Below are positions 1 through 19,429 of a DNA stretch of 64,000 nt, in pieces. The DNA is from Candidatus Falkowbacteria bacterium RIFOXYA2_FULL_47_19. Its GTDB lineage: Bacteria; Patescibacteriota; Patescibacteriia; Patescibacteriales; UBA12075. The notes beneath the pieces were generated by a model, which was not told the DNA's origin, did no database searches, and saw nothing but the letters and a program-made list of their open reading frames with translations. A program made the position numbers and the translations under genes. The stretch is from contig MFGB01000006.1 in the NCBI GenBank assembly GCA_001780275.1, positions 1,756 through 65,755 of the forward strand. The letters are read 5' to 3'. Positions within the stretch are counted from its first letter, which is position 1. Each line of letters opens with the position of its first letter.

Positions 1-58
1 CCATGGACTTAATTGATTATGCGTTTAGGATATAATTAATGATTTGATCTGATATTTT

Positions 59-1999
59 CTAAATTATCTTATTTATCCAGCCGAAAGTATTCTCTAAAAT
101 GTTCAAGATTATCTGGATGATCGATTCTTTCTTTTTAGCGGTCATGAAAGTGTGCGGCTTGGAAATCACGGTATTCCCCCCCGAATCGATAGATTCGACC
201 TTAAAGCTGTAAACCAGACCTGGTTTGAATTTCGTGATAACGATCACATGCTCCTTCGTGTAGTTGTTGTTGAGGTCGGTGGCCTCGCTTAAGGTCGCGT
301 CGCCGCCGTGCACCCCTTCCTGAAAATATACCCGCGAAGTCGACGGCTCGTTGGTCAGCCAGGAGATTATGGCCTGGGTCTTATTGCTCCGGTCCACGAA
401 TACGGTTGAATCCGCTTTGATGTGCGAAATAATAGGCGGCAGATCGTCCTCTGACGTTGAGAAACGGTCCACTGTCTCGGAGGCCAGGTTTCCTTTGGCG
501 TCGATGCTTACTATCTGCACTTCATAAAAAGTGCCCGCTTCGAACTCGTTGACCTCTATCTCGTGTATGACCGATACCGCCGTGTCTTTGATGGTTTTCG
601 ATTGGTCTATGGAAAGGACATTGCCGCGATAGGGTGAAAACTTGATAGCCGAATCCGCTTCCTTATTGGTCGTCCATTTGAATACCGCCGTTTCGTTATC
701 CACTATCTGGGTAAAGTAGCTCGTGATCTCAAGCTCTTCGATCGAAGTCCGGAAAGTATAATCCCGTGATCTGGCCGTGGGACCGAAACTCGCCTTGCTT
801 CTGAGTTGAAAATGGTAAAGGGTGTCAGGTGCCAGATTATATAAAGTAACTTCATGCTCCCTGGTCTGCTCTTCGGAATCGCCGGTTATCTGGAGATAGG
901 GCTCCGCCGCCCCGGGGTTGTATCTGTCTTCAGGTGCGAAGGCCACCAGTGAATTGGCCGTAATATCGGTTCGCCAACCGATAGTAGCCTGGGTCGCGCT
1001 GACGTCGATATCCGGAGCCCCGGACATAACCGGCACCGGCAAAAGGCCTGATAGCTTATCGAACGAATCGATCGTGGTTAAAGGGTCCTGCCCTAATTCA
1101 TTCAATGATATTTCGGGAAAAAGACGGCCGAAAAATTCTAATATCCGCGCTGACGTATCTTCGGGTTCTGGCTCTGGCTCGGGCTCCTCTTCTTCCTCGG
1201 GGGTGGAGGTCGCTTCTTCAACAAGCCCTTCCGTCGTGGTAAAGATAAAATTTTCAGAGTAACCGGCGTTCCCCCAGGTATCGCTCGATAAAGCGCGGAA
1301 ATTATAACGTTGTCCCGGCGTAAGATTAATGAGGACAACGGCGTGTTCCGCAACCTCCTCCCAATGTCCGTACGTATTGCCGTATGACGCAGTCTGACCG
1401 TACTCGATAAAGCTTGTCGCCTCTTCGTCTGTCTGCCAAGTAATCCGGGCCGAATCTTCCGATACCGTATCGACGGCAACATTGGAAATTACAGGCGGGA
1501 TTTTATCGGTCTTGTCTATGATCAGTATTCCGCCGCCTCCGCCAGATGCCGGCTCTTCAGGTTCCGGTTCGGCCGGCGCTGATCCGGTCGTAAAGCTGCG
1601 CACGGTATTATCGGTGGTAATACCGCCGTTGATCCGTTCCGATCTGACTTTGTAGAAATAGGTCGTGGAATAATCAAGCCCGGTAACGTCTACGCTGTGG
1701 CTGGTCGCGTTTTTAACGCCCGTCCCCTGCTCTTTGGCTGATGAGAAACCGCTATCCGTATCGTAGACAACGAAAGAGTCCGCCGCTATATTAGTGCCCC
1801 AGGTTACGGTAGCGATATTCCCGGCAACGGATTCGCTTACGCCGGAGATTACCGGGCCGTCAAAGGTATGCATAGCGTTCTCGTAAATTATATAGCTTGT
1901 GCTTTGCATGGCGGCCATGATCCCGTCCGCTGGAGCAAAGAGCATGGCAAAAAGGATCAGAACGGAGAATATCTTTAATTTTATTTTTATGGTCATCAT
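59..1999 (-). CDS. Secreted/cell-surface protein with about five tandem fibronectin-type-III-like domains
   Basis: 646-aa ORF with an ATG start and a hydrophobic signal-like N-terminus (KIFSVLILFAMLFAPADG). An Fn3/PAP-N-like pattern recurs (TW.T...A.S.V.Y ... H.V.L..L.P.T.Y.F...S). Domains are joined by EPEPEPE and SGGGGG linkers. Confidence 0.75.
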   Translation of the reverse strand: MMTIKIKLKIFSVLILFAMLFAPADGIMAAMQSTSYIIYENAMHTFDGPVISGVSESVAGNIATVTWGTNIAADSFVVYDTDSGFSSAKEQGTGVKNATSHSVDVTGLDYSTTYFYKVRSERINGGITTDNTVRSFTTGSAPAEPEPEEPASGGGGGILIIDKTDKIPPVISNVAVDTVSEDSARITWQTDEEATSFIEYGQTASYGNTYGHWEEVAEHAVVLINLTPGQRYNFRALSSDTWGNAGYSENFIFTTTEGLVEEATSTPEEEEEPEPEPEPEDTSARILEFFGRLFPEISLNELGQDPLTTIDSFDKLSGLLPVPVMSGAPDIDVSATQATIGWRTDITANSLVAFAPEDRYNPGAAEPYLQITGDSEEQTREHEVTLYNLAPDTLYHFQLRSKASFGPTARSRDYTFRTSIEELEITSYFTQIVDNETAVFKWTTNKEADSAIKFSPYRGNVLSIDQSKTIKDTAVSVIHEIEVNEFEAGTFYEVQIVSIDAKGNLASETVDRFSTSEDDLPPIISHIKADSTVFVDRSNKTQAIISWLTNEPSTSRVYFQEGVHGGDATLSEATDLNNNYTKEHVIVITKFKPGLVYSFKVESIDSGGNTVISKPHTFMTAKKKESIIQIILNILENTFGWINKII

Positions 2000-2000
2000 G

Positions 2001-2180
2001 CTATTTTATGTACTTGCGGATAAACTTCCTCACGTCACTCTCAAAGACCCGGTAGGTTTTCCGTCCGATCCGAGCCGCCTTTAGATCGCCGGATTCTATC
2101 CAACGATAAACAGTCCTCTTGTTGACCTTGAGGACCTTGGCGACTTCTTCGATTGTGAGGATGTCATCCTTGAAAAACAC
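2001..2180 (-). CDS. Small helix-turn-helix DNA-binding protein (excisionase/MerR-type HTH), absent from the supplied ORF track
   Basis: Hand-translated 59 codons from GTG (2178-2180) to TAG (2001-2003): VFFKDDILTIEEVAKVLKVNKRTVYRWIESGDLKAARIGRKTYRVFESDVRKFIRKYIK. The stop lies 1 nt upstream of the ATG of the Fn3 gene, which implies co-transcription. Confidence 0.6.
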   Translation of the reverse strand: MFFKDDILTIEEVAKVLKVNKRTVYRWIESGDLKAARIGRKTYRVFESDVRKFIRKYIK

Positions 2181-2189
2181 TGGGGATCT

Positions 2190-2729
2190 TTCTAAGAATT
2201 ATGATTTATATATAAAAATATATTTAATAGCCGGAGTTTTATTGGTTTTTATATTAACTGACAATGAACTTAAGTTAAAAAATTAATTAAAAACAGTTGT
2301 GCACAACTAATATTATTATATAAATTTTGTACACTATTGTCAACAAATATTATCCACAATAATCAATAATATTTAAAAATATATTATATTATTTAATTAT
2401 AATCTATTTTTTTCTATATTTATTTATAATTATTAAATATCTATTATTTTAAACTATATATAATTATTATACATAATAATTTACTATTGTCACAAAAAGT
2501 ATTATTTAGTGGCTTATATTATTAATTTTTAAACAAAAAAATACGCCATTTTAAGGCGTACTCTGCTAAACTGACAAAAACACAAATTGTTTACAGTTGA
2601 TTACTTATCACGAATAGAAATTTTTACCATGAATGATTTTATATCATTTGTGTAGATTGGACGATATATTCCTAGCTCAGGAGTTGAAAAATTTACAAAA
2701 AGGCTCTTTCTTATCTGCTTCCGTTCAAA
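2190..2729. promoter_or_regulatory. Extremely AT-rich 540-bp intergenic island upstream of the HTH-Fn3 operon
   Basis: Composition is visibly far below the window average. It has no ORF and contains repeated TTGT(G/A)CAC / ATTGTC words plus a perfect 12-bp palindrome. Confidence 0.5.
2534..2560 (-). terminator. Rho-independent terminator of the giant gene
   Basis: Stem tacgcc (2542-2547) pairs with ggcgta (2555-2560) around a 7-nt loop. On the minus strand it is followed by a run of 8 U (plus-strand A run 2534-2541). Confidence 0.7.
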
Positions 2730-5700
2730 TCATTTAAATTTAATCGTCCCTTTCATCTTAAACGTCCCTCCGGGGCTGAAACGGTATTTCGGCGTAGCGC
2801 CGGAATATTCGAACGCGCCGATGTCAAAAGCGTCATCATACGGCCGCGGGTTGCCGGCGATGTCGTCAGTGACCAGGGTGATCGTCGTGCCAGCATCATA
2901 AAGAACCGAGGCGATGTCGCGGATACGGAAATCGTAGTTTTGCCAATCGACAAAGGTCGCGTCCCAGATGGCAGTTGATGAGCCTAAATTTATGGCATTG
3001 TCTCCTGTGGCATCATCTGACGCATTGAAACTGAATATATCAAAATCAGCCGAATTATTATAGTCATTGGTGTAATTATTGAATATCACATTATTCTGCG
3101 CGACCACATAGGCGGAAGAATCGACAGCGATGCCGTTGTTGTTGCCATATATTGTATTATTGTATATTTCCAAATTCCAACCCGATCCCTCCTGATAGAT
3201 CGCATGCGAATCTAAGCCGGCGCCCCAACCGAATATGACGTTATTAATAACCTTTGCTCGATTTCCCGCAACAACATTACTAAAAATAAGACCATAGTTA
3301 CTGGCCCCGCTTGTATTATTGCCGTTTATTAGGTTGTTGGAAATTTCGATTCGATATGTGATAGCGTTTCCAAAACTCAAACCGCTCATCGCCTGGCTTT
3401 GATCCGCATTGATTTGCAGACCGTCAATCCTCACGTCAGAAATTTCAACATCAAAGACATCTATTATGTTTGTTCTTACTGCATATTTCTGTGGATTCCA
3501 TATCCCCTCATGTCTTTGACTCTCACCGACTTCATCTAATAAGTACGGGGTGTAAATTTTAATGTATGACGATGTTGCTGTCGTCCATCCGAAAAAAATA
3601 ATATCTGCATCGGGAAGGTAGTCTTCACTAGTGGAAGCATAGCAAGCGACAAGGTGCGCGGTATTTGAGGCGGTCAGATCTTGATTAGGTATTAAGACTA
3701 AATCATCAACTGTGTCATTAATTAGACTATTAACTCTATTTGCCTGGTTAAGAGTCCAATCTGCTATATATTCATGTGCACGGAACACCCCGACGCTTGC
3801 CGTCGTAGTGGCGGTCGGTACGCGGCCATAGCGGTCACGGACGTCATAGGTTGATGATGAGATTCGGCTGTGGATGAAGGCGACATCGTAATAACCGTCC
3901 CCGCCGAACTGGATCACGTCGCCGACGCCGACATTGGCCGGCAGGTCGGCGGAGAAAGTAGCGATTGCGGTCGTCGATGAAATGGTTACGGTTGCGGCGC
4001 TGGAATTAAGGTCATAAGGATGGCGGCCAACGCTCCTATAAAGAATGGTCGGCCCCTCCAGAGCGCCGATGTCCCATTTGGCATCATAGCGCTCCTGGCC
4101 GTCGGCGCCGTAGATAATACTTGATCTTATCGAGCCGGTGGAAGTGCTTAATGTCAGATCATAGCCGGCGTCAATGGCCGGATTCTTGCCGCCGCCATCC
4201 GCATCATCATTTTCCGGCATCAGATGGTAGTCGTTGTTGGCGGCGTCGACGAAGGTAACGGTGGTATTGGTTTGCGAGTCGGTGCCAGGAGCAGTGGCGT
4301 CGGAGGAGATATTGTTCGACGATGAGGCACTGAAACTCCCATCATAATCAACATTGGCGTTATTTACAATATTATTTATTGCATTAGGGTAGACTAACTC
4401 TGAATGAATACCAACGCTACCAATGTCGTAAATCGTGTTATTATAAATATTTATTTCTGAGCCAGGATCCAACGAGATGTACATGCCCGCGGTGTTATAT
4501 CCATAAATTATATTGTTATATATATTGTAATCGGCAGCCTCATTCCATGCGCTAATTTCTATCCCTTGATTTCCAATATTCGAAGAATTGGTTGATTTGA
4601 TTATATTATTTGTAATTATTCTCTTTCCGCCAGCACCCGTAGAATAAATACCACTTCGATAATCATCAGATCCGCCGATTTCTATCTGTAGGCCGTCTAC
4701 AATAGCATATTTTATGTCATACAGAATTAGGCCGGAATCTGCATCGGTATAAATCCTGTATTTTGTTTCTTCCCACTTCCCGCTGTGCCGGGCTGATTCA
4801 GTCGTATAGATCTTTACATAATTATACCTTTCCGTCGTCCAACCAATAAGCCAAACCTGATTAATATCTTCATTAGTCCAAACCCCATCAATCCTCGCCA
4901 CCGCGATTGCCGGATTGCCGCCGTTGATCAGGGTGGTGGTGCCTTGGCCGTCTCCGACTTGTTCGCCCGCGACGAAGGCGCCGGAAATGTTAACCAGCAA
5001 AAACTGGTCCATTACGGCGGAGGTCGTGGTGGAGAGATGGACGAGCTGTCCGGTAGCGCCGGAGGTCTGGCCGGTCATGAGGCGGGATGACAGGGCAAAA
5101 GACTGAAAGATGCCGGTGGAGCTGGTGGCGTCGAGGACGGCGGTGCCAGTGGTGGTCAAATCGGATTGGATGGCGGCTTCCCAGGATGACAGAGTTGAGA
5201 AATCGCCGCCTGTCTCCATTACCGTGGATACGAATTCAACCGAGGCATCATCGGCGCCGATATCCCAGGTGCGGATCGGTTTGCCGTCGATGTCATCTGT
5301 GACAATCGATGACACGGACGAAGTGCCTTGGTCGATGCCAGGAGAATTGGGGGCGAGATGGTAATCTTGATTGGCTTCGTCCCAAAATATTACATTTGTA
5401 TCCTGTAATGAATCATCACCCGGCGCAGTGGCGTCCGATGAAATATTGTTGCCATAGGAAGTTATAAATCCGGCTCCGACATTGCCTAGATCAAAACTTG
5501 TTCCATTGCTTTGGACTAAATTGTTTTTTATATTCAGATAAGCAGACGTCGGCCACCCTGCTATATTTATGCCATCATAATTATTGTTAATTATCGTATT
5601 ATTATGTATTGAAATATTCGAATCTTCTGTTCCACCTGTATATATACCGACGTTGAATCCTTTAACTATGTTATTCCATACATACATCTTATTCTTGCCG

Positions 5701-8700
5701 TAAGGTAGGTCAATCCCTAATGGTCCGTCAGGTGTGATACTTGAATGTCCGTGATCGGAATAAATTAAATTATTGCTGATATAGTACTCGCCGTTATCAT
5801 GTGTGCCATGATTATCCTGAATTCCGCAATGTGCCTCTCCTGCTTCATCTAAAACACCGGTTTCTTTTAGTTGCAGGCCATCAATACGGATAGAAAGTAA
5901 CGACTGTCCAATGCTTATAACCCCAAAATAATCTTCTACGCTTATATTATATTTAGTGTCATCCCATTTGCCCGGATGCCTTTGCGATGCGCCGACCTCG
6001 CTGGATGTTACAGGCGTGAAAATCTTGATGAAATTCTGTTCGCTCGTAGCCCAGCCTTCAACCACCACCGCTTCATCATCTCCATTTGAACTCGCGTAAG
6101 CGGCGATCATTTGGACAGTGTTTGATGCGACCAGGTCGTCCGACGCTAAAACCACCCAGTCATCAACAGTATCGGAGATACCGGAATTGACGTTTTCAAC
6201 TGTTTGCGTTTCCCAATCATTCAAAGTCAAATGCGCCCGATAGATATTGAACGCCGCACTCGTGGTCGCGGTCGGCGCACGCGTGTCCCAGGCCTGGACG
6301 CTATAGACGGTTGAAGAAGAACGGCCAGTGATGAAGGCCAGATCATAATACCCGGCCCCGCCGAATTGGATCACATCCCCCACCCCGACATTATCTGCCT
6401 GCGCGGCGGAAAATGTGGCTGTCCTCGTTGACGAAGAAATCGTCACTGTGCCGGTCGAACCAAGCGAAGCCGTGTCATTGCCGACGCTACGATACTGTTT
6501 GGCCGCGGTTTCATCTGCGCCAATGTCCCAGCCAAGGTCGTCGGGGTTGCGGAGAGCGCCGTCAATGTCGGTACTAAAACTTGATATTACGTCCAAAGTC
6601 GAGCTTGAGCTGTAATCAAAACCGGCGTTTCTCGCACCCGCGTCGCTTTCGGCCAGATGGAAATCCTCGGCATTGGCCGTTGTAGAAACGAAAGAAAAAA
6701 CCTGATTGACGAGCGTGTTGGCGCCCCCGGTCGGAGTATCGCTTATGTCGGTGGCATTATGGGTCGTCGCGGCCGCGAAAGCACCGTTAAAAGGATCGGT
6801 GGAAGAGGCGATAATATTATTTATCGCGATAACTGTCCCGTTATCCTGTTCAATGCCCCGCCCGAAATTATAGATCGTATTGTTATAAAAATAGCCGGTG
6901 CCAAGATCGCAATTGAAAAATATTCCGCCGTATAACCAAAAGCCGGTAGTATAGATAATATTATTAAAAGCCTTGACCAAGCGGCAATTCGTAAATTTTA
7001 CTCCGCCGGAACCGAGTTGCGTATTGGTGTAGCCGACAGCCAGGTTGGAGGAATATTCAAACTCTCCTAAATCGTTATAAGAGTCAAAATTCGTTATAGC
7101 GTCCCAGGTTCCGTTAGCCGTGCTTACGAGCTGGAGTCCCTGGACTTTCGCGTAATCTTCCACGATATTCAAGGGCTCGTCAATTGAGACCAAGCGGTAT
7201 TTTGAATCGGAAAAAACGCCGTTGTGCCGGGCCGCGTCGGCCGTATAAATTCTTATATAATTATCATTATCCGTCGTCCAGCCGGTAATTGAAACCGCTT
7301 GTGTGTCCGAGGCGCTCCATTCTCCGTCTATCATCGCGACCGCGATCGGAGAGGCGCCGAGAGAGTCGCCGGTACCCGTGACGGTCCACATATTCGTGGT
7401 TCCGCCGGTATAGCGGAACTGCGTTCCGGAAGCGGCGATTAAGGGGCTTGAGGTGCCGGTGATCCCGTCCACCAGTATCTGGTCCGTGGTCGTGGCCACG
7501 ACCACGACGTTAATGCCGGTGTCAGACCCGCCGACATAAACGTCCAGCGAATTATTTTCGTTCAAAGTGCCGGTTTTCCAGCCCGAGAAAACCCGGGTCG
7601 TGGAAGCCGAGAGATTTGATTCCACTAGGTTTTCCCAGTCAAAAAGACGGCTATAGTCGCGATTGGCGCAGTCCCCGCCGGCCGAATTCGTTTCGCAGAT
7701 CGTGGACACGAATTCTTGCCCGACTTCGTCGGCGCCGATGTCAAAAGCCGCTCCGCGGGCCGTATAATCGATATCATATTGGACGGGCGCGGAAGCATCC
7801 CAAAAAACCGTGGAAGTGCCGGCGTTTATAGCGGCTGTGTCATCGGACGCCAGGTGAAAATCATAATTTGCCGCGTCCAGAAACGACACGCTTGTTAATG
7901 ATTTAGAATCATCGCCTTCCGCGTCATTCAAATTAGAGATATTGTTGCCTGAAGCGCCGTAAGTGCCGCGGAATCCATAGATCTCGCAATCCTGCGCGAT
8001 ATTATTGAAGGCGTAAACAGTAAGTGTGGTTTGATTATAAAAGCATTCGCGGGCGGAAAACACGGTGTTATTATAAATATAGCCGGTCGAATCGCCTCTG
8101 ATCCTGATGCCGATATTGTTATCAAAGTTAAAAACAATATTATTAGTTATGTAAATCCTGGCATAACGATTATCGCCCGCAACGCCCAAGCCAATGCCGG
8201 AATTGTAAGCTGAACTGTTAACGGCTTGGACAATATTATCTCCAAGATAAATTTCATTTTGCCCGGCAGTTAATGTTCCGTTTACCACTATTCCATATCT
8301 ATAATTTCCGCTGATCGTTCTTTTTACCTGCAATCCGTAAACCCGCACATGATCCTCTGATATATTGACCGATGCCGAAGCGTCGGATGTGCTTAAAACG
8401 TACTTAGCATCATCCCACTTCCCCTTGTGCCTCCCGTAAGTATCCGTCGGATCGGTCCAGATTTTAATATAGGTCGTGGTAGCGGTCGTCCAACCAAGAA
8501 TTTCAACCGCCGTTGTGTCGTCCGTGCCGCCGGTAGAGCGGCAAGTGGCGACGGCGATGGCCGAGTCGCCGGCCGCCTGGGCGCCGGAAAGGGTGAAATA
8601 CGAGGCGCTGTTGCAAGTGGTGTTCGTGTACCAAACGTCATTCGCCTGTTTCGCCGTCCCGCCGGCGATCGACCGGAGGAGGATCTGGGAGGAAGAAGCG

Positions 8701-9023
8701 GCATGGACAAGAGTGGCCGTATTGCCGGTCTGGTATACTCCGCTCCGGCAGAGATAGACCGCCGTGTTGTCCGCGATCCCGCCCGTCCGCGTGCCGGAAA
8801 AGACCTGGGTGGTGGTGGCCGCGAGATCCGACTGCACCGCCGCCTCCCAGGCCGCCAAGCTCGTATAATCGGTACCGACGGCGTTGTCGGGATCAATTAT
8901 GGAGATGAATTCGGTGGTTGCTTTTGACGGGCTTGGAAATAATAAAAAAATACCGATTGACAACAAAAGGGAAATTAGAAATTGGAAATTAGAAATTGGA
9001 AATTTAAAACTATACTTTCTCAT
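2730..9023 (-). CDS. Giant (2097 aa) secreted right-handed parallel beta-helix repeat protein built from five tandem ~400-aa modules
   Basis: One uninterrupted ORF with an ATG start and a signal-like N-terminus (LISLLLSIGIFLLFPSPSKA). Dense NN(I/V)(I/V)..N beta-helix turns are present. Each module ends in D(Y/F)HL....(I/A)DAG ... (W/F)DIGA(D/L/F)(E/D). Confidence 0.85.
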   Translation of the reverse strand: MRKYSFKFPISNFQFLISLLLSIGIFLLFPSPSKATTEFISIIDPDNAVGTDYTSLAAWEAAVQSDLAATTTQVFSGTRTGGIADNTAVYLCRSGVYQTGNTATLVHAASSSQILLRSIAGGTAKQANDVWYTNTTCNSASYFTLSGAQAAGDSAIAVATCRSTGGTDDTTAVEILGWTTATTTYIKIWTDPTDTYGRHKGKWDDAKYVLSTSDASASVNISEDHVRVYGLQVKRTISGNYRYGIVVNGTLTAGQNEIYLGDNIVQAVNSSAYNSGIGLGVAGDNRYARIYITNNIVFNFDNNIGIRIRGDSTGYIYNNTVFSARECFYNQTTLTVYAFNNIAQDCEIYGFRGTYGASGNNISNLNDAEGDDSKSLTSVSFLDAANYDFHLASDDTAAINAGTSTVFWDASAPVQYDIDYTARGAAFDIGADEVGQEFVSTICETNSAGGDCANRDYSRLFDWENLVESNLSASTTRVFSGWKTGTLNENNSLDVYVGGSDTGINVVVVATTTDQILVDGITGTSSPLIAASGTQFRYTGGTTNMWTVTGTGDSLGASPIAVAMIDGEWSASDTQAVSITGWTTDNDNYIRIYTADAARHNGVFSDSKYRLVSIDEPLNIVEDYAKVQGLQLVSTANGTWDAITNFDSYNDLGEFEYSSNLAVGYTNTQLGSGGVKFTNCRLVKAFNNIIYTTGFWLYGGIFFNCDLGTGYFYNNTIYNFGRGIEQDNGTVIAINNIIASSTDPFNGAFAAATTHNATDISDTPTGGANTLVNQVFSFVSTTANAEDFHLAESDAGARNAGFDYSSSSTLDVISSFSTDIDGALRNPDDLGWDIGADETAAKQYRSVGNDTASLGSTGTVTISSSTRTATFSAAQADNVGVGDVIQFGGAGYYDLAFITGRSSSTVYSVQAWDTRAPTATTSAAFNIYRAHLTLNDWETQTVENVNSGISDTVDDWVVLASDDLVASNTVQMIAAYASSNGDDEAVVVEGWATSEQNFIKIFTPVTSSEVGASQRHPGKWDDTKYNISVEDYFGVISIGQSLLSIRIDGLQLKETGVLDEAGEAHCGIQDNHGTHDNGEYYISNNLIYSDHGHSSITPDGPLGIDLPYGKNKMYVWNNIVKGFNVGIYTGGTEDSNISIHNNTIINNNYDGINIAGWPTSAYLNIKNNLVQSNGTSFDLGNVGAGFITSYGNNISSDATAPGDDSLQDTNVIFWDEANQDYHLAPNSPGIDQGTSSVSSIVTDDIDGKPIRTWDIGADDASVEFVSTVMETGGDFSTLSSWEAAIQSDLTTTGTAVLDATSSTGIFQSFALSSRLMTGQTSGATGQLVHLSTTTSAVMDQFLLVNISGAFVAGEQVGDGQGTTTLINGGNPAIAVARIDGVWTNEDINQVWLIGWTTERYNYVKIYTTESARHSGKWEETKYRIYTDADSGLILYDIKYAIVDGLQIEIGGSDDYRSGIYSTGAGGKRIITNNIIKSTNSSNIGNQGIEISAWNEAADYNIYNNIIYGYNTAGMYISLDPGSEINIYNNTIYDIGSVGIHSELVYPNAINNIVNNANVDYDGSFSASSSNNISSDATAPGTDSQTNTTVTFVDAANNDYHLMPENDDADGGGKNPAIDAGYDLTLSTSTGSIRSSIIYGADGQERYDAKWDIGALEGPTILYRSVGRHPYDLNSSAATVTISSTTAIATFSADLPANVGVGDVIQFGGDGYYDVAFIHSRISSSTYDVRDRYGRVPTATTTASVGVFRAHEYIADWTLNQANRVNSLINDTVDDLVLIPNQDLTASNTAHLVACYASTSEDYLPDADIIFFGWTTATSSYIKIYTPYLLDEVGESQRHEGIWNPQKYAVRTNIIDVFDVEISDVRIDGLQINADQSQAMSGLSFGNAITYRIEISNNLINGNNTSGASNYGLIFSNVVAGNRAKVINNVIFGWGAGLDSHAIYQEGSGWNLEIYNNTIYGNNNGIAVDSSAYVVAQNNVIFNNYTNDYNNSADFDIFSFNASDDATGDNAINLGSSTAIWDATFVDWQNYDFRIRDIASVLYDAGTTITLVTDDIAGNPRPYDDAFDIGAFEYSGATPKYRFSPGGTFKMKGTIKFK
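2808..4055 (-). repeat. Giant-protein module 5 (type B, begins LYRSVGRHPYDLNSSAATVTISS, ends FDIGAFE)
   Basis: DIGAFE codons lie at 2808-2825. Confidence 0.7.
4056..5246 (-). repeat. Giant-protein module 4 (type A, begins VEFVSTVMETGGDFSTLSSWEAAIQSDL, ends WDIGALE)
   Basis: DIGALE codons lie at 4056-4073. Confidence 0.7.
5247..6509 (-). repeat. Giant-protein module 3 (type B, begins YRSVGNDTASLGSTGTVTISS, ends WDIGADD)
   Basis: DIGADD codons lie at 5247-5264. The N-terminal ~190 aa align along their length with module 5 (VGVGDVIQFGG.GYYD.AFI ... RAH....DW ... DTVDD ... IKI(F/Y)TP ... SQRH.G.W). Confidence 0.7.
6510..7715 (-). repeat. Giant-protein module 2 (type A, begins EFVSTICET..DYSRLFDWENLVESNL, ends WDIGADE)
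   Basis: DIGADE codons lie at 6510-6527. Confidence 0.7.
7725..8918 (-). repeat. Giant-protein module 1 (type A, begins TEFISIIDP..DYTSLAAWEAAVQSDL, ends FDIGADE)
   Basis: Boundaries were placed on the DIGADE codons at 7725-7742, read directly from the sequence. Confidence 0.7.
8971..9005. repeat. Left arm of the inverted repeat bracketing the four-helix-bundle gene (gaaattagaaattggaaattagaaattggaaattt)
   Basis: The reverse complement of 9392-9418 is gaaattgaaaattagaaattggaaatta. This arm lies inside the first codons of the giant gene, where it encodes FKFPISNFQFLIS. Confidence 0.7.
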
Positions 9024-9391
9024 TTTATATTATTACAACAAGCTTTTATGTAAGAGTTTAATTTTTTATGCATTTTTTCAAGATTAGACAGCATTTCATT
9101 GTAGATCGGTTTTTGGATCAATTTTCTTTTTTGCAAAAGCAAAGTCCAATGTTTTGATTCTAAAAGCGAGCCGCGAGAATTATAATAAAACTTGATTTTA
9201 TCTTTATGATGATAACGTCCATAGCCCTCGGCGATGTTTGCTCCGACAGAATCAATGGCACAAATAAATTGATCTCCGATAATTTTTTTCGTCTGCCAAT
9301 CCATTTTTTCAAAAACGCTCCACGCTAAATCAGATGACTCAATTGCCAATTTATATATTTCCAAATTGCCTAATTTTATATAATCGGGCAT
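9020..9391 (-). CDS. Four-helix-bundle protein (23S rRNA intervening-sequence protein family)
   Basis: The sequence LEIYKLA......W.VF......K.IGDQ...A..SVGANIAEGYGRYH.KD.I.FY..SRGSL.ES is typical of the family. The track start at 9400 is a TTG; the first ATG is at 9389-9391. The TGA stop overlaps the giant gene's ATG (ATGA). Confidence 0.8.
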   Translation of the reverse strand: MPDYIKLGNLEIYKLAIESSDLAWSVFEKMDWQTKKIIGDQFICAIDSVGANIAEGYGRYHHKDKIKFYYNSRGSLLESKHWTLLLQKRKLIQKPIYNEMLSNLEKMHKKLNSYIKACCNNIK

Positions 9392-9418
9392 AATTTCCAA
9401 TTTCTAATTTTCAATTTC
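9392..9418. repeat. Right arm of the inverted repeat bracketing the four-helix-bundle gene
   Basis: The sequence aatttccaatttctaattttcaatttc is complementary to 8971-9005 and starts immediately upstream of the ATG. Confidence 0.7.
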
Positions 9419-9463
9419 GTGTATTTCAAAATGCTTATAGTTTTATATTTATAAACCTATTTT

Positions 9464-10042
9464 TTATAATGCATTCTTCTTCTCCACCACCCCCCAATCA
9501 AACACCCTCTCTGTATACGGCTGGCCATTCATGAGCTGTTCGCGTAAAAAGCCGGCAAAAATCTCGTCTTCCAGGCGGATGCGGTATAACCGCGGCCGGA
9601 GCGTTTCCGTTTTTGGTTTCGGACGGTATTCTCTCCCTTCTTGCTTAGCGCGCGTCTCTTCCTCCTCGGCCCTTTTCTTCTCCTCTTCGCTCCATTCTTT
9701 TTTCGGGATCTCCCGTTCATCGGCCATCGTAAGTTTTTGGACCTCGTCTTCGGTTAATTCCATTTTCAGGATAAGAAAGCTGATACGCTCCGTGGTGGAC
9801 CACTGCAAAATTTTTCCCTCTTCTTGTTTTTTCATGATCAGCACGTCACCGATCTTCATGTCGTTTTTAAGACTTTCGGCGCTATTATCGCCTTGATCGT
9901 GGGCGAATACGGCCACCTCATAAAGCGCTTTCGGCGCGGGTTTAAAAAATAAATTTATAAGCACCCCTAAAATAACAAGTCCGGCCAAAACGAATCCGGC
10001 AATAAGCGCTTGTTTTTTGGTTAAATGCTTGATTTTTATCAT
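9464..10042 (-). CDS. Hypothetical N-terminally membrane-anchored protein with a highly charged K/E-rich region
   Basis: The ORF has one TM segment (ALIAGFVLAGLVILGVLINLFF). The track start at 10084 is a TTG; the first ATG is at 10040-10042. Confidence 0.5.
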   Translation of the reverse strand: MIKIKHLTKKQALIAGFVLAGLVILGVLINLFFKPAPKALYEVAVFAHDQGDNSAESLKNDMKIGDVLIMKKQEEGKILQWSTTERISFLILKMELTEDEVQKLTMADEREIPKKEWSEEEKKRAEEEETRAKQEGREYRPKPKTETLRPRLYRIRLEDEIFAGFLREQLMNGQPYTERVFDWGVVEKKNAL

Positions 10043-10287
10043 AAAAACAAAAAACACGGTTAAAAACCGTGGAAGTTGCAACAAAAAAATATAAAAGTAG
10101 GTTTTTCCTTAAGCATGGGGATGGCCTAAAATTACAAAAAATACCGGGAGCGATATCCTGGTATTATTATACAATAAACTAAGGCATGTTTCAATATAAA
10201 AATTATTTTCGAACAAATGTATGAAGCGCGCGACTAGTCATTCCTGTTTAAAAATAATTCCTGTATTTCCTCTGAACCGTTTAAGGA

Positions 10288-10530
10288 TCAACCGAACATC
10301 GGTTCCAGCTTCAACTGTTTTTCTATTCTCTCCAATCTTTTTTCAAAACGGTCATGAGCGGCCTGGTTAGAGACGAAAGCATGTTCAATGTCATCAAGCT
10401 TTTTCCTTTGAGCGTCCATTGCGGTAAGCAATTGGCCCACGCCCTTTTTCACATCTTTTAAATCATTGCTTAATTCATTAAACTCGTCTTTCGTGGCCAA
10501 CTTATTGAATTGTTCCGGCGTTAACGTCAT
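10288..10530 (-). CDS. Hypothetical 80-aa coiled-coil protein
   Basis: ATG-initiated ORF with heptad-like charged sequence and no recognisable motif. Confidence 0.4.
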   Translation of the reverse strand: MTLTPEQFNKLATKDEFNELSNDLKDVKKGVGQLLTAMDAQRKKLDDIEHAFVSNQAAHDRFEKRLERIEKQLKLEPMFG

Positions 10531-10565
10531 AATATTTATTAAAAATTACCCGTCCTCTGATAATA

Positions 10566-12038
10566 TTATAATTTACCAGCCGGTAGTTTGTCAAATACCA
10601 ATCCCATGATCAACCCCAAAAATAACATTCCGAAATGTCCGCTCCACCACCAATGATCAGCCTGAAACAGCACGAACATTGAGGCTAATAACGCAATAAT
10701 ATAAATTTCGTCCTTCGTCGTTCCGTCTCGTTTCCATAATATATAAACAATGGCGCAGAAAACGGATAAAAATAAAACCGATCCGATAATCCCAATTTCA
10801 GACCAGATCAATAAAAAAACGTTGTGGACCGGCTGGTAATCCCAGGCTTTTAAATTCGGCTCTATTTTATGCAGATACTGAGTATAATTTCCGACTCCCA
10901 CGCCGAAGAGCCAGTTGTCGCTGATAATTTCCCGGGCCGATTTGAGGGATTCTATCCGTTCGGTATTCGATTTTATCTCCAGGCGGGTATCCCGGGAAAG
11001 CCTGGTCAGGACAAGATCGGAAAACAGATTGAAAAATATAAAAATCATTATTCCTCCCGCTAAAACAATTTTCAATAGATATTTCTGCGTCGACAGATCT
11101 TTTTTTATTAAAGCAGATGAAAACATGGCCAGTATCCCAAAGATCAATCCCGCCCAGGCCGCTCTTGAGAAGGTGAAGAATATTGCGGATAAAAAAACTA
11201 AAAACAAGGACCAAAGCAGGTACGGATATAAAAATATTAGATATTGGATATTGAATATTGGATATTTGCGCAAGCCCGAATCTGATAAAAAGTTTTTATT
11301 ACCTCCCAATATCCGATATCTAATATCTAATATCGGCCTGTTAGCTTCCGAGGATTTGAATAATAGCATGAACAAAAAAAGCAAACCGACCACTAAATAT
11401 CCACCCAGAATATTCGGATGATCAAGTCCTCCATAGGCCCTGAGCCACCTTTCCCCTGATAAGGTTTCTATGACGGATGTTCCCGGGACGGCCGGATCGT
11501 GCGAGGCGAGACCGAGCCACTTGCAGGCGAAAGATGATTGCGACAGGAATTGCCAAATACCTAAAATAGCCTGCACCACCGCTCCGGTCAAGAACGCATA
11601 AAGCATTTTTATCCGGTCATAATCCGCACTAACAACCATCCAGAACAATCCGACTCCTAATAAAAACCAAAAATACTTCTGCAGGGCTACGAGCTTATCC
11701 GGTGAGCGGAATATAGATATAAAAATAATCAAATCAAACAAAGCAATGCTGAACAAAAAAAATTTATGTTTAAAAATTGATAATTGATCATTGATCGGAT
11801 ATTGGGCATTGGATATTGGATATTGAAAACGTTTTAATAGAAAAAACGCTGCTGCCGCAAATAACAAAAAAGCGAGCACTACATCCGTTCCATATAAACT
11901 GATCGTTCCAAACTCGGAATACCCGCCGTTTATTATTCCCGGCCGGATGATCCATCGCGTCTGCCAGGGCAGTAAAAAAACCAAAAAATACAGGCCGTAT
12001 TCGATTATTTTTTTATACGTTGTCGACATATTTCTCAT
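10566..12038 (-). CDS. O-antigen ligase/polymerase-like (Wzy_C) polytopic membrane protein
   Basis: 490 aa with more than 10 hydrophobic segments. The Wzy_C-type motif FTFSRAAWAGLIFGILAM is present. The CDS contains two in-frame low-complexity palindromic insertions. Confidence 0.7.
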   Translation of the reverse strand: MRNMSTTYKKIIEYGLYFLVFLLPWQTRWIIRPGIINGGYSEFGTISLYGTDVVLAFLLFAAAAFFLLKRFQYPISNAQYPINDQLSIFKHKFFLFSIALFDLIIFISIFRSPDKLVALQKYFWFLLGVGLFWMVVSADYDRIKMLYAFLTGAVVQAILGIWQFLSQSSFACKWLGLASHDPAVPGTSVIETLSGERWLRAYGGLDHPNILGGYLVVGLLFLFMLLFKSSEANRPILDIRYRILGGNKNFLSDSGLRKYPIFNIQYLIFLYPYLLWSLFLVFLSAIFFTFSRAAWAGLIFGILAMFSSALIKKDLSTQKYLLKIVLAGGIMIFIFFNLFSDLVLTRLSRDTRLEIKSNTERIESLKSAREIISDNWLFGVGVGNYTQYLHKIEPNLKAWDYQPVHNVFLLIWSEIGIIGSVLFLSVFCAIVYILWKRDGTTKDEIYIIALLASMFVLFQADHWWWSGHFGMLFLGLIMGLVFDKLPAGKL

Positions 12039-12079
12039 AAAAACGTATCAGGCTGAAGCGAGGGCATATTTCGGAAGCG

Positions 12080-13018
12080 TCAGCCAAGAACGATTTCCAG
12101 TCTTTCCTGCCACCGCCTGCGATATTCTTCCCTTCTGTCCTTGGAATGCAGTTTTAGGACCTGGTCGTTTATGGTTACCCGGGTATCCTTATTCATTCCC
12201 TTTTTCAAAGCAATCGGCAGTTTCCGCAGCTGCCAGGCCTTAAGGTTCTTCTCAAGCCCGCCGACGAACAAATCGACCGTATCGCGGTAAAATCCCGATA
12301 GACCCTCTCCGGCGGTTTGCCCGGGAAGAGGACGCTTGGGATATTTCCGGTTAGGAAGATATTCCCGAAGCCATCCGTTTTTTTCGATAAGCGCGCCATA
12401 AAAATCGCCTTTATCGAAAACGGGGATCAAGCCGGCAAGCCAATGGATAAAGTAAATATCCTTTCCGCCGTTTAGCATTAGGGGCCTTAAGTCCAGTGAT
12501 CCAGCGGCCACGTAAAAATTTAAACAGATCTTGTTTCTGGTCTTATTCTCTTTCGGCCGCAAATCCAATAATTTCAGGAAACCCGCGCAAAAAAAACGGG
12601 TTATCCAGATCCTTTTCGGTTCGGTTACGATAAAAAGGTCGATATCGCTTTCGTCTTTAAGATTATTGGCGCCTATCACGTTACTTAAAGCGATCAGGTT
12701 TATCCAGGGGATCAACTTGAATATCCGGGCCATTAAAATCGCGCGTTTTAGCTTCTCCTTGGCGTAATTATATCTCCTGGCTCTCGTTTCCACTGTCTGC
12801 TTCCTTCCGGAAAAAAAATAAAACCCGTCCTGTTCCTCTAAAATATTCTTCAGATCATCTTTTTTGAGCACGGCTGATATTTCTTCGAACACGAAAGCTG
12901 TATCGCAATATTGCCAGATCTCAAAAGCCGTCAACGGATAATCGAACATGTCGAAGAACGCTATCGTCCTGATAATAGCATTTTTCAATCTTCCCGTGTC
13001 GTTTCCTTCTGGCGGCAT
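12080..13018 (-). CDS. Hypothetical protein, possible nucleotidyltransferase fold
   Basis: 312 aa. The segment GANNLKDESDIDLFIV resembles the G.(S/N)...D.D motif of NTase-fold proteins. This is weak evidence. Confidence 0.35.
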   Translation of the reverse strand: MPPEGNDTGRLKNAIIRTIAFFDMFDYPLTAFEIWQYCDTAFVFEEISAVLKKDDLKNILEEQDGFYFFSGRKQTVETRARRYNYAKEKLKRAILMARIFKLIPWINLIALSNVIGANNLKDESDIDLFIVTEPKRIWITRFFCAGFLKLLDLRPKENKTRNKICLNFYVAAGSLDLRPLMLNGGKDIYFIHWLAGLIPVFDKGDFYGALIEKNGWLREYLPNRKYPKRPLPGQTAGEGLSGFYRDTVDLFVGGLEKNLKAWQLRKLPIALKKGMNKDTRVTINDQVLKLHSKDRREEYRRRWQERLEIVLG

Positions 13019-13149
13019 AAAAAAATGAATATTAAATATCAGATATAGGATATTATGCTACAGGCTTGAATCGTTATATCAATAAAAATCGGCATCAGGA
13101 TTTAATATCTGTTGTTATAATATCAAATATCCAATATCTAATTACCCGT

Positions 13150-14259
13150 TTATTCTATTTTAGGTTTATCTATGGCTAATACCTCGATCTTCGATTCCCC
13201 GTCCGTGATCTTAACGACATCCTTGTCTATTTTTCTGAATTCGATGTAAGCGTTATTATAATGGTTGACCGTCGCGGCCATGGATATGCCCAGCTTGCGC
13301 ATGAAATCGTCATAGGAGAGGAGATGCTTCCCGAGCTTTTCCACGTTAGCCCGGATCGTTTTGGCGCTTTCCTCTATCTGCAGCGCCCGGAGTCCCTGGA
13401 GAACGGTCTGGAGATAGGCCAAAAACGAAGTGGGCGAAACTATGATCACGTGCCGGTCGCGGAACGCGTATTCAATAAGGTCGCGGGTCGATACCTTTAC
13501 GGCCCCGACTTTGTTTATAAGGAGATCGTAATAGATGGCCTCTGAAGGAATGAACATAAAAGCGAAATCCATGGTTTTTTCGGACGGCTTTACGTATTTG
13601 CTCGTTTCATCGATCCGGGTTTTTAAGTCCTGTTTGAAGATCTTTTCCAGTTTTTCCCGTTCCGCCTTGTCGCTGGCGTTAAGTATCCGCTCGTAATTCT
13701 CGAGGCTGAATTTCGAATCGATCGGAATAACCTTGTCTTTGACGAATACGACGGCGTCCACGATCGAACCGTCTTTAAAGGGGTACTGCATCTGGTAAGA
13801 ATTGGGGGGCAGGACATTCTTAAGCGTTTCTTCAAGATAATACTCGCCCAACACCCCTCTCTGTTTGGGGTTTTTAAGTATATCCTGCAGATTCTGGAGC
13901 TGGCTGGAAAAATTGACCACCTGCTTGTTGGTCTCGTCAAGTTTGGTCAGGCGTTCTGTTACTGAAGATATAAGCTTGGCCGACTGGCCGCTTATCGATT
14001 GCACCGTTTTAATGGTTTGCCCGATCTGCTCCTGGGTACTGCGGTACTGCGCCTGCGTAGCCTGATGCGTTTCGGCCAGTTTCGCGTCTATCATCTGCCT
14101 AAGTTCCCGATTCTGCTCGGCCAGGATCGCGAGCCGCTCCATCATCGCCCCCTGTCTCTCTTCGCTCCCGGCACCGTCTTTCTTTTTAAGCATAAGATAT
14201 ATCGTTACCGCCAAGCCGGCTAAAAGAAGAAATAATAAGATAATAGTGAAAACCTGCAT
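13150..14259 (-). CDS. rmuC: DNA recombination protein RmuC
   Basis: N-terminal TM segment followed by a long coiled coil. The C-terminal RmuC nuclease-like core reads VDAVVF......IPIDSKF ... FAFMFIPSEAIY ... VIIVSPTSFLAYL. Confidence 0.85.
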   Translation of the reverse strand: MQVFTIILLFLLLAGLAVTIYLMLKKKDGAGSEERQGAMMERLAILAEQNRELRQMIDAKLAETHQATQAQYRSTQEQIGQTIKTVQSISGQSAKLISSVTERLTKLDETNKQVVNFSSQLQNLQDILKNPKQRGVLGEYYLEETLKNVLPPNSYQMQYPFKDGSIVDAVVFVKDKVIPIDSKFSLENYERILNASDKAEREKLEKIFKQDLKTRIDETSKYVKPSEKTMDFAFMFIPSEAIYYDLLINKVGAVKVSTRDLIEYAFRDRHVIIVSPTSFLAYLQTVLQGLRALQIEESAKTIRANVEKLGKHLLSYDDFMRKLGISMAATVNHYNNAYIEFRKIDKDVVKITDGESKIEVLAIDKPKIE

Positions 14260-14284
14260 ATTTATTGTATTAGTGTTTAATATC

Positions 14285-14312
14285 TAGTATTTAGCTGTCC
14301 GGCTAAATACTA
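14285..14312. promoter_or_regulatory. 11-bp inverted repeat in the divergent rmuC/uvrA promoter region
   Basis: tagtatttagc-N6-gctaaatacta, followed by ctaaatac/aaaatac word repeats. Confidence 0.3.
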
Positions 14313-14518
14313 AATACAAAATACTATATACCTTATATTACCAATTCTCTACGATTACCGCAACCGAACGCTAAAAATAGCCTAATTTCCATAATTTTTA
14401 TTTTGTAGCGCACCGCTCTTGCCACAACCCGATATTTAATGTATAATAAACTCCGTTTACAATCACATAATTCGCTATCGGCTGATTGGCGCTTATTTGC
14501 CGATCAGTATTATATTTT

Positions 14519-17389: not shown

Positions 17390-17414
17390 TCGCGTCAAAT
17401 TATTTAATGCCATA

Positions 17415-17446
17415 AGAGGCGCCCGGCGGGGCGTCTCTTTGTTTTT
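17415..17446 (+). terminator. uvrA rho-independent terminator
   Basis: 10-bp stem agaggcgccc/ggggcgtctct. Its G19-T34 position is a wobble only on the plus strand. It is followed by tttgttttt. Confidence 0.75.
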
Positions 17447-17450
17447 AAAC

Positions 17451-17498
17451 AAAAAAAGGCCCGCCTATTGGACCAGATTGTTCTGGTAATAAGCGGGC
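17451..17498 (-). terminator. Minus-strand rho-independent terminator, convergent with the uvrA terminator
   Basis: 11-bp outer stem 17459-17469/17488-17498 plus inner stem accaga/tctggt. The single non-Watson-Crick position is C.A on the plus strand but G.U on the minus strand. A 7-U run follows on the minus strand. Confidence 0.7.
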
Positions 17499-18445
17499 GG
17501 TGCGTCACGTTTTTAGCGACGCTAGATATATTTTCCACGGCGTTGGCCGTAGGTCTTTCGGTACATTCATACCTCCTCTCCGGCGCGCGCAGCGGGCGAC
17601 CGGTGTTGGGTTGATGGAAAGGTGGGCGATCCGGCCGCAGAGCGGGAGAGAGCCCTTGGGGCCCCCTTGCCTCATGGGCGGATCACCCGGACGGCCGCGT
17701 TATTGGACGCAACTACGGCCATTTGCCTGGCGGGCGAAAAACCGGGGCTGCAGGGGTCATCTTTTCTCCTTTTTCAAGGGATGGGCGAGGGGTGCGGAAG
17801 TGTCTCCCGATACCGGGGGGCCGCGCGCGTCCGGCGGCGGCCGATGGGGGGACGTCTCTAGCCGCGCCCCCGCCCTTGGGAAATCCAAGCCGTACGGGGG
17901 CCGGAGTCGGGCCGATATTCGGCGCGGCCGACTCATTTTTTTTGACCAAAAGGCTTGGATACGCCGACCTACCGCCGAACATTGTGGGCGGTCAAAAGCC
18001 GACGCTCCTCATAGGTATTCCCGGTTTCAATGTCCCGAAACGAATCGGAACTCCGCCGAAGAACCCTATAGGGAGTGGAGCGCTGGCGACCAGGACGGGC
18101 CGGCCAACTTGATCACGGGCAGAAAAATCGGCAACGAGTGAAGGCCACGTTTCTGTTCACAATAACGGTACCGTCCCGAATGGGACGCAAATAATAGGTC
18201 ATCCCGGATCTCCTTTCCTTCCCTCAAGGGCGCCCTTAGGGGAAAAAATATTATGATAAACCCCGTTATCCGGTCACGCCGCCTTCAAAGAAGCGGCCGC
18301 GGATGAACGGAGATACCACCGCAAGACAAAGAGCGAATCGTAGAAACGCGACGTAGAGACGCGATTAATCGCGTCTCTACGTCGCGTTTTCATATTTAAC
18401 GCAGAATTTTATCTTAGCAGATATTAAAAATCTTTCAAGGTACGT
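17499..18445 (-). ncRNA. Candidate large (~0.95 kb) structured noncoding RNA of unknown class
   Basis: The locus is GC-rich with only overlapping Arg/Gly/Pro-rich ORFs in several frames. Many helices are visible (see findings). It is flanked by a promoter at 18452-18480 and a terminator at 17451-17498. Strand assignment is tentative. Confidence 0.45.
18344..18389. repeat. Perfect 46-nt palindrome (aaacgcgacgtagagacgcgat|taatcgcgtctctacgtcgcgttt)
   Basis: Read directly from the sequence. It gives a 21-bp stem and belongs to the GTAGAGACG palindrome family. Confidence 0.85.
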
Positions 18446-18451
18446 TTCTGT

Positions 18452-18480
18452 ATAATAACACACACAAGAATATTTGTCAA
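18452..18480 (-). promoter_or_regulatory. Sigma-70-type promoter: TTGACA, 17-nt spacer, TATTAT
   Basis: The minus strand reads ttgacaaatattcttgtgtgtgttattat. It lies between the CDF-gene terminator and the GC-rich locus. Confidence 0.55.
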
Positions 18481-18531
18481 TAGTAAATTAAATATTTAAA
18501 CACAATTGGCTAAAATTCAATTAATCTATAT

Positions 18532-18557
18532 AAAAAAACCCCGCGTATTACGGGGTT
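18532..18557 (-). terminator. Terminator of the CDF transporter gene
   Basis: Stem aaccccg/cggggtt with a 7-nt loop, followed by a U run on the minus strand. Confidence 0.75.
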
Positions 18558-18564
18558 ATAGTTT

Positions 18565-19344: not shown

Positions 19345-19429
19345 ATTCGCCTCCTGGCCGCTTTTCAGGCGCTTTCGAAAAAAGAGAGGCCGCTCACATG
19401 CGAACGGCCCTGATAATTGCTTTAGAATG

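Follow-up and report, generated by a model that had tools for sequence, protein, structure and literature searches.

An inverted-repeat cassette around a four-helix-bundle gene at the 5' end of a giant surface-protein gene in a Falkowbacteria genome

The 64,000-nt stretch of the genome of Candidatus Falkowbacteria bacterium RIFOXYA2_FULL_47_19 analysed here (contig MFGB01000006.1; hereafter the window, to whose numbering the coordinates refer) carries on its minus strand a small gene for a four-helix-bundle (4HB) protein of the S23p/Avd fold, directly followed by the gene for a giant surface protein, and it is the small gene and the repeats around it that concern us. The 4HB gene (9023-9391, with its stop codon reaching down to 9020) encodes 123 aa and belongs to PF05635/TIGR02436, and the giant gene (2730-9023), recognised by its open reading frame (ORF) and its beta-helix matches, encodes 2097 aa. 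At their junction, AAAATGAGA, the TGA of the 4HB gene (9020-9022) overlaps the ATG of the giant gene (9021-9023), as a preliminary description of this DNA had stated; no Shine-Dalgarno (SD)-like purine run lies ahead of the giant ATG. What that description missed is an inverted repeat that brackets the 4HB ORF. Its two 27-nt arms are 96% complementary and have 387 nt between them, so that the cassette measures 441 nt overall, with the unit GAAATTR upstream and its complement downstream. The 5' arm (9392-9418, minus strand) is made of G-containing 7-nt units (GAAATTG AAAATTA GAAATTG GAAATT) and stops directly at the 4HB ATG, while the 3' arm (8978-9004, minus strand, with an extended match over 8960-9009) is made of C-containing 7-nt units (AATTTCC/AATTTCT) and lies inside the giant ORF. 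There it codes for KFPISNFQFLIS, approximately codons 7-15 of the giant, just ahead of the hydrophobic core of the signal peptide; these codons hold about five tandem units, whose length is not a multiple of three.

Several measures describe the pairing of these arms. A 20-mer taken from them has six matches in the window against 0.04 expected, and the arm duplex reaches -30.7 kcal/mol, compared with -10.3 ± 2.9 when the partner arm is shuffled. Averaged over the structure ensemble of the 481-nt cassette RNA, bases of the 5' arm pair with the 3' arm with a probability of 0.64, and the minimum free energy fold of the cassette closes through both arms. Among the comparison loci (designated below by L-numbers, as homologs of the giant are by P-numbers), L001 holds the ortholog of the 4HB gene, 76% identical in protein sequence; its arms are diverged yet still complementary, and complementarity is kept in both orthologs despite a silent-site divergence (dS) of ~2.5.

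The assignment of the small protein to this family, already made in the preliminary description, was borne out, with PF05635 matched at E 3.6e-22 (79 bits, cutoff 33.8) and TIGR02436 at 79.7 bits (cutoff 24). The AlphaFold2 (AF2) monomer model (pLDDT 93.6) has four helices in an up-and-down bundle, and the Foldseek search proposed at the outset recovered the S23p fold, with template modelling (TM) scores of 0.87 to 2gsc and 0.79 to 2rld, related PDB entries that hold five chains each. The same model scores 0.77 against bAvd (4dwl), and 0.74-0.77 against bAvd and the ribonucleoprotein structures of diversity-generating retroelements (DGRs) taken together; identity is about 20% to the structures of the intervening-sequence (IVS) type and 10% to bAvd. 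The ratio of replacement to silent substitution (dN/dS) against the L001 ortholog is 0.06, with silent sites saturated, and because of this strong purifying selection we take the 4HB protein to be a working protein, unlike the IVS ORF of Coxiella. It has no signal peptide, whereas the giant, for which one is predicted, is exported. A 4HB protein 100% identical to that of the window is encoded by Candidatus Falkowbacteria bacterium RIFOXYB2_FULL_47_14. A HEPN-like Rx4-6H motif was considered for the 4HB protein and rejected, since the spacing of the conserved R73 and H81 does not fit.

The arms are a general companion of such genes. We surveyed 80 loci of 4HB relatives from species-representative genomes of at least seven phyla (29 loci of the Candidate Phyla Radiation (CPR), together with loci of Bacteroidota, Gammaproteobacteria, Campylobacterota, Nitrospirae, Omnitrophota and Elusimicrobia), scoring 77 4HB ORFs and, as controls, segments of the same length from the same loci. 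A flanking inverted repeat with a score of at least 12 was present at 61 of the 77 ORFs and at 1.3% of the controls, and one with a score of at least 14 at 44 of 77 and 0.26%, respectively (Mann-Whitney p = 3e-42 for the scores of the two groups). These arms are tandem arrays with a period of 7-10 nt, and their unit varies from locus to locus but is common within lineages (GAAATTR, GATATTG, GTAATTR, GGTTCATT, GTTTATTA and others); the G-containing units stand on the upstream side in 56 of 61 loci. The gene downstream of the 4HB gene is co-oriented with it in 76 of 77 loci, as is the upstream gene in nearly every case. Spacers are short (medians of 64.5 nt before the 4HB start and of 35 nt from the 4HB stop to the next start), and the 3' arm overlaps the initiation region of the next gene in 31 of 55 loci. 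Because arms, orientation and tight spacing recur across the survey, we regard the unit of arm, 4HB ORF and arm as the conserved object.

The genes next to this unit are of many kinds. Downstream genes recognised by Pfam include OEP (after AcrB, at a conserved site in Bacteroidota), GlmS, TraG/VirB4-like and TrwB-like ATPases, and Laminin_G and LTD proteins, and N-terminal sequences suggest UvrC, DHFR, tRNA synthetases and FtsX. The downstream gene reaches 1000 aa in only 3 of the 80 loci, and only 2 of the 29 CPR loci have a neighbour of at least 1000 aa; nor are N-terminal hydrophobic segments in excess in the genes downstream of 4HB genes (23%, against a background of 24%). The cassette occupies many unrelated operons, and the common denominator of the 4HB loci is the hairpin cassette, not the neighbouring gene. 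A scan of viral contigs contained no 4HB relatives, and a scan of metagenomes with a single 4HB protein returned only six short loci, with no usable context. Within the Bacteroidota, a group of loci (L021, L032, L040, L050, L051, L059, L064, L066, L068-L070, L072, L073 and L077) has the cassette after a gene of ~1225-1411 aa, and mostly with a gene of ~415-537 aa next; in L021 the first of these encodes an AcrB-type resistance-nodulation-division (RND) pump and the second an outer-membrane factor (OEP), and the rest of the group was assigned by gene size and N-termini only.

Among close relatives, the recurrent synteny between 4HB genes and large surface-protein genes anticipated in the preliminary description does exist. 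The ortholog in L001 shows full synteny (UvrA, RmuC, an unnamed gene, Wzy_C, an 80-aa gene, a 193-aa gene, the 4HB gene and a 2075-aa giant), and non-homologous giants come directly after 4HB relatives (59-66% identity) in L002, L107, L108 (T4SS_pilin/TIG/Laminin_G_3) and L098 (DUF2341/Laminin_G_3). In L100 the 4HB relative comes after a giant of 1883 aa, and in L096 and L097 4HB genes lie within beta-helix-giant operons, a 4HB gene being present in three of the four independent operons of this kind that were examined. The 3' arm lies within signal-peptide codons, as in the window, in L001, L002, L098, L107, L108 and L015. Other close relatives have entirely different neighbours: a 4HB gene 71% identical to ours, whose arms are likewise built of GAAATTR, is flanked by atpA and atpG, and another lies between ftsH and a DUF7544 gene. 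The syntenic locus L095 carries the closest non-orthologous giant (43% identical) and keeps both of its flanking genes, upstream a 182-aa homolog of the 192-aa gene that precedes the cassette in the window and downstream the gene for an FN3/purple-acid-phosphatase protein; the 4HB gene and the cassette are missing there, and the signal peptide of the giant (MFYFKKTIYITIFVLAAFFAVNKVSA|ATEFVSIIDPDN) is free of heptamers. Relative to this ~190-aa gene, the cassette stands after it in the window and L001, before it in L096 and L097, and is absent in L095. The ATGA overlap is not conserved either, being replaced by TAAATG in L001 and by a 35-nt gap in L002.

Further variation was seen in individual loci. 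L002 has one G-type arm and three C-type arrays, one proximal (68-nt loop), one after the 4HB stop and one in the signal peptide of the giant (7831-7956 and 8405-8512 of that locus), and this multiplicity allows alternative pairings. L107 has a second 4HB cassette (2576-2920) at the S21/T4SS-pilin junction, where the related L002 has none. In L097 a second, divergent 4HB-like domain lies in frame with a giant: at 2501-3100 of that locus, a 2686-aa giant is called with a ~175-aa 4HB-like domain (a weak PF05635 match) ahead of its own signal peptide, which would reflect either a lost stop codon or a true fusion. Two adjacent giant ORFs in L096 (1659 and 3311 aa; 9800-10001 of that locus) are the two parts of one gene, divided by a 1-nt frameshift between WDIGADE and IYRSVG; either the gene is a pseudogene or the long-read assembly contains an error at this point. 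A heptamer frameshift was considered as the origin of this split (P0171/P0124), removal of one unit fusing the two ORFs, and was rejected, as the lesion is a 1-nt indel elsewhere and the array is in frame.

The giant itself is modular, in the way first proposed. Its motif [WF]DIGA.[ED] occurs exactly five times (aa 427-433, 832-838, 1253-1259, 1650-1656 and 2066-2072), and openings of the form EF[IV]S (type A) stand at aa 38, 437 and 1263 and YRSVG openings (type B) at aa 844 and 1662, giving five modules of 397-421 aa in the order A-A-B-A-B. On the minus strand, the signal peptide (aa 1-35) occupies 8919-9023 and is followed by the type A modules M1 (7725-8915) and M2 (6510-7724), the type B module M3 (5247-6509), the type A module M4 (4056-5246), the type B module M5 (2808-4055) and a basic C-terminal tail (2733-2807). 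Identity is 31-33% between A modules and 39% between B modules, and A and B have only the C-terminal ~280 aa in common; since blastn finds almost no matches between the module DNAs, these have diverged, again as claimed earlier. The beta-helix character of the protein, also part of the initial reading, is upheld by matches above cutoff to PF13229 (Beta_helix; 42 bits, cutoff 25.9) and to NF041518 (choice_anch_Q; 40.1 bits, cutoff 25, at aa 2039-2073), and by the AF2 model of M3 (pLDDT 86, pTM 0.91), in which an N-terminal beta domain precedes a right-handed beta-helix. The fold search suggested for individual modules, run on M3, gave generic matches only, none with a TM above 0.38 (lyases, LnbX, Rhombotarget A and tailspikes), and these do not allow a specific activity to be assigned to the module.

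Homologs of the giant form a CPR family; the number of modules per protein is roughly 3-8, and every module (~400 aa) closes in the choice-of-anchor-Q motif DIGAxE. The giant resembles the choice-of-anchor Q/right-handed beta-helix proteins of Patescibacteria in these module ends (NF041518), in its Beta_helix match and in its predicted fold; it differs from them in matching no specific enzyme or adhesin family, in having two alternative N-terminal sub-domains (A and B) and in its family-specific basic C-terminal tail. Indeed, in the C-termini of this family (window 2733-2807; P0122-P0160; the upstream giant of L100), which extend 21-26 aa past the last DIGAxE, we noted a basic end motif, xKGx[IV]K[FM]xGx[IV]KF[KR], represented by GTFKMKGTIKFK in the window giant; this conserved motif may be a CPR-specific sorting or anchoring signal.

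The preliminary description had further treated the 4HB and giant genes as an operon of two genes closed by a terminator. The terminator stands, as an intrinsic-terminator-like hairpin with a T-run on the minus strand, although its coordinates are 2538-2564 instead of 2534-2560. The two-gene operon, on the other hand, is probably wrong: the 72-nt spacer 5' of the 4HB gene is filled by the repeat arm and contains no good promoter match, and a conserved gene lies upstream (9464-10042, minus strand), encoding a 192-aa single-pass membrane protein for which scans of Pfam and NCBIfam gave no family match. The best promoter-like match, TTGAAA-17-TATAAT (11/12), lies upstream of this gene (10166-10194, minus strand) and, judged by its agreement with the consensus, is a candidate for the operon promoter; the 192-aa gene is probably the first gene of the operon. 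Homologs of its product are encoded upstream of beta-helix giants in L001 (77% identity), L096 (48%, E 8e-60), L095 (39%, E 3e-31) and L097 (31%, E 2e-18). The ~190-aa single-pass membrane protein is a conserved upstream neighbour or partner of such giants, in five loci including the window, and a functional partnership with the giant is more plausible for it than for the 4HB protein.

Hairpins and heptamer arrays also occur without a 4HB gene. Under a strict threshold the window contains five long hairpins, against none in each of five Markov-2 simulations. At 13030-13146 (minus strand), between RmuC and a 312-aa gene, lies a hairpin of GATATTG-type 7-nt units without an ORF (fold z = -4.05), which looks like a cassette devoid of the 4HB ORF. 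The Wzy_C (O-antigen-ligase-like) ORF at 10566-12038 on the minus strand contains, in frame, a 28-nt GATATTG inverted repeat (11234-11333; 89% complementary, 44-nt loop), which falls in a loop that differs from the L001 ortholog and is reminiscent of the Rickettsia palindromic elements; a further heptamer-coded peptide, QYPISNAQYPIN, occupies aa 71-82 of the same protein. More hairpins, mostly intergenic and some with arms of ~7-nt period, were found at 14271-14326, 23971-24088, 25270-25389, 29126-29202 and 38857-38957. Heptamer-coded peptides (ISNFQFPIS, ISNFQFLIS, ISNIQY) occupy internal positions in 7 of 80 giant homologs, including P0123 (aa 1615), P0143 (aa 1403), P0144, P0157, P0165 and P0171, and because of these peptides inside giants we conclude that the repeat arrays are also found in frame within coding regions away from 4HB genes.

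Taken together, we lean, with some reserve, towards the reading that the 4HB gene is the cargo of a hairpin cassette of the IVS type, probably processed or gated at the RNA level. At the locus studied here, the cassette has entered an operon of ~190-aa membrane protein and giant, where it occupies the 5' end of the giant gene, and its 3' arm now serves as signal-peptide codons. By analogy with the IVSs of 23S rRNA, the arms would pair in the transcript to form a duplex of ~27 bp, which would be processed by RNase III or would gate the translation of the 4HB and giant genes. As the stem would enclose both the 4HB start and the first giant codons, translation of the giant would need read-through of the 4HB ORF and re-initiation, or would be shut off by RNase III: ribosomes that traverse the 4HB ORF and re-initiate at the ATGA would turn the giant on, and a cut by RNase III within codons 7-15 would turn it off. 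It is probably for the cassette, and probably not for the giant protein, that the 4HB protein works; it might, for example, bind the repeated arms as a pentamer.

The nearest known system is the IVS of the 23S rRNA of Coxiella burnetii, Leptospira and Brucella. RNase III cuts the stem formed by the arms to excise this IVS in Coxiella and Leptospira. Both elements encode a PF05635 protein, both have terminal inverted repeats with a stem of 27-28 bp around an ORF of ~120 aa, both lie within a host RNA, and in both cases versions without an ORF coexist with the complete ones. The Coxiella IVS, in which RNase III cuts mid-stem, measures 428-444 nt, compared with 441 nt for our cassette, and has a 28-bp terminal stem and an S23p ORF that is decaying and probably untranslated (PMC4990558). 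The differences concern (i) location, since the cassette stands among the protein-coding genes of an operon, with part of it inside them, and not in helix 25 or 45 of 23S rRNA (an Rfam scan of the window found no rRNA); (ii) the arms, which in the cassette are tandem arrays of 7-10-nt units; (iii) the ORF, which is under strong purifying selection in the cassette and decaying in Coxiella; and (iv) excision by RNase III, which is established for the IVS and assumed for the cassette by analogy only. A second comparison is with the repetitive extragenic palindromic sequences and bacterial interspersed mosaic elements (REP/BIME) and the Rickettsia palindromic elements, short palindromic repeats found in operons and in frame inside ORFs. 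The relatives of the cassette that lack an ORF resemble these as imperfect hairpins in operon spacers, with at least one in frame within a membrane-protein ORF; the cassette differs from these elements in its arms of tandem heptamers and in its cargo, a 4HB ORF and not a RAYT/Y1 transposase. Our search of the literature found no description of PF05635/TIGR02436 cassettes outside rRNA, although one may exist elsewhere.

Several observations weigh against this interpretation. The fold of the whole cassette beats shuffled sequences only modestly (z = -2.2), and a test for selection at the RNA level was negative, with arm mismatches compatible with G.U pairing in 86 cases for the sense strand and 74 for the antisense strand (p = 0.38); in the absence of a G.U asymmetry, a role of the arms at the DNA level is equally compatible. 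The polarity of the arms is reversed in L096 and L097. Unit types are common to different loci of one lineage, as with GGTTCATT in Sphingobacteriales, which hints that the units are recognised by their sequence and do not simply pair. Among close CPR relatives, genes of at least 1700 aa adjoin the 4HB gene in about 4 of 9 independent contexts, and since this exceeds pure chance insertion a weak link between 4HB genes and giants survives. Finally, processing by RNase III rests on analogy for every cassette outside rRNA.

These points bear on the alternatives in different ways. Were the cassette a mobile element acting at the DNA level, its arrays would serve insertion, either as terminal inverted repeats or as DNA hairpins; the hairpins without an ORF would be non-autonomous derivatives, and any RNA effect on the giant gene would be incidental. 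Such an element would explain why the cassette is present or absent at syntenic sites (the window against L095, and the S21/T4SS-pilin junction of L107 against that of L002), why one cassette type appears in unrelated operons, and why hairpins with cassette-type units are found between genes and in frame inside the Wzy_C ORF, with heptamer-coded peptides inside 7 of 80 giant homologs; the lack of G.U asymmetry and the lineage-specific unit types also agree with it. However, the neighbours examined showed no transposase, recombinase or target-site duplication, the 123-aa 4HB protein has no known catalytic role, no near-identical copies were observed at different sites, and the viral contigs hold no relatives. 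Co-orientation in 76 of 77 loci and the strand polarity of the arms (G over C upstream in 56 of 61) point instead to a function in the transcript, and we consider the mobile element unlikely. We see still less reason to adopt the model of the preliminary description, in which the 4HB protein would be dedicated to the giant as its partner (a chaperone, a regulator or an immunity factor) and translationally coupled to it. That model draws on the ATGA overlap and the missing SD-like purine run, on the preservation of the pair in L001, on 4HB genes directly upstream of non-homologous giants in L002, L107, L108 and L098, on the 4HB-like domain in frame with the L097 giant, and on the 4HB genes in three of the four beta-helix-giant operons; it fails to account for the close relatives in the ATP synthase operon and after FtsH, the unrelated downstream genes of the 80 loci, with housekeeping and efflux genes as neighbours across phyla, and the scarcity of neighbours of at least 1000 aa in CPR loci (2 of 29). 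Moreover, the L095 giant has no 4HB gene, the position of the 4HB gene floats, the giants that do have one are not mutually homologous, the overlap is not conserved, and an exported giant would be served by a protein without a signal peptide, all of which make a dedicated partner decidedly improbable.

Two further explanations were considered. Slippage of the 7-nt units could shift the reading frame of the signal peptide, or inversion between the arms could toggle the giant, making the locus a phase-variation switch; slippage of this kind in tandem repeats underlies the phase variation of opa in Neisseria. The five or so units of a length not divisible by three in codons 7-15 of a surface-protein gene are what such a switch would have, the 27-nt inverted repeats do flank a 387-bp segment containing the giant ATG, and unit numbers differ between orthologs. 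We nevertheless hold this to be very improbable: ten independent assemblies of the window locus are identical through both arms and none is inverted (a consensus that may hide minority variants), three assemblies of L002 are identical in arms and orientation, cassette and neighbours share one orientation in 76 of 77 loci, no recombinase lies nearby, most cassettes precede cytoplasmic housekeeping genes, and the sole apparent frameshift in an array (L096) is a 1-nt indel elsewhere. We give almost no credence to the remaining idea, in which a DGR would diversify the giant and the 4HB protein would be its Avd accessory protein. DGRs abound in CPR genomes, and the 4HB protein resembles Avd (bAvd, PDB 4DWL, 8UBE): the four-helix-bundle fold is alike (TM 0.77 to bAvd), the five chains of 2gsc and 2rld recall the Avd pentamer, and Avd binds nucleic acid. 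PF05635 is also the commonest family adjoining DGR reverse transcriptases (PMC10053308). Against this, the neighbouring genes and large ORFs that were scanned include no reverse transcriptase, and no template/variable-type repeats occur in 1-20000 or between the modules, the sole direct repeat of at least 40 nt in 1-20000 being an internal duplication of UvrA; identity to bAvd is about half of that to IVS-type structures. In the regions scanned, the DGR reading is largely refuted.

Two observations elsewhere in the window are recorded here in their own right. A tRNA-Ile (46350-46424, minus strand) is called with a UAU anticodon (tat), which is uncommon in bacteria, where AUA is usually decoded by a lysidine-modified CAU tRNA. 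A 1014-aa protein encoded at 26080-29124 (minus strand) contains two T2SSE (PilB/GspE-type ATPase) stretches (751 bits) and looks like a tandem double ATPase.

Returning to the IVS-type cassette, a broader version of it can be put forward tentatively, as a possibility in which we place less trust than in the cassette reading itself: that the PF05635 genes outside rRNA constitute a widespread and, as far as our search shows, undescribed class of elements, with lineage-specific inverted arrays of 7-10 nt in operons of CPR, Bacteroidota, Proteobacteria, Campylobacterota and others, in which RNase III-type processing or translation gating would be combined with a pentameric 4HB protein bound to its own arms, and with a preferential control of those CPR giants whose signal peptides absorbed the 3' arm. 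The S23p/IVS protein family is very large, with at least 1280 relatives of the 4HB protein, and to our knowledge its only understood member is the DGR protein Avd. The present analysis removes an attractive but unsupported story of chaperone or immunity function and indicates that the true conserved partner is the ~190-aa membrane protein. If most members of the S23p/IVS family sit in hairpin cassettes of mRNA operons, the function of the family becomes testable, the annotation of the starts and signal peptides of CPR giants must heed the repeat arms, and the IVS of rRNA would be a special case of a general element.

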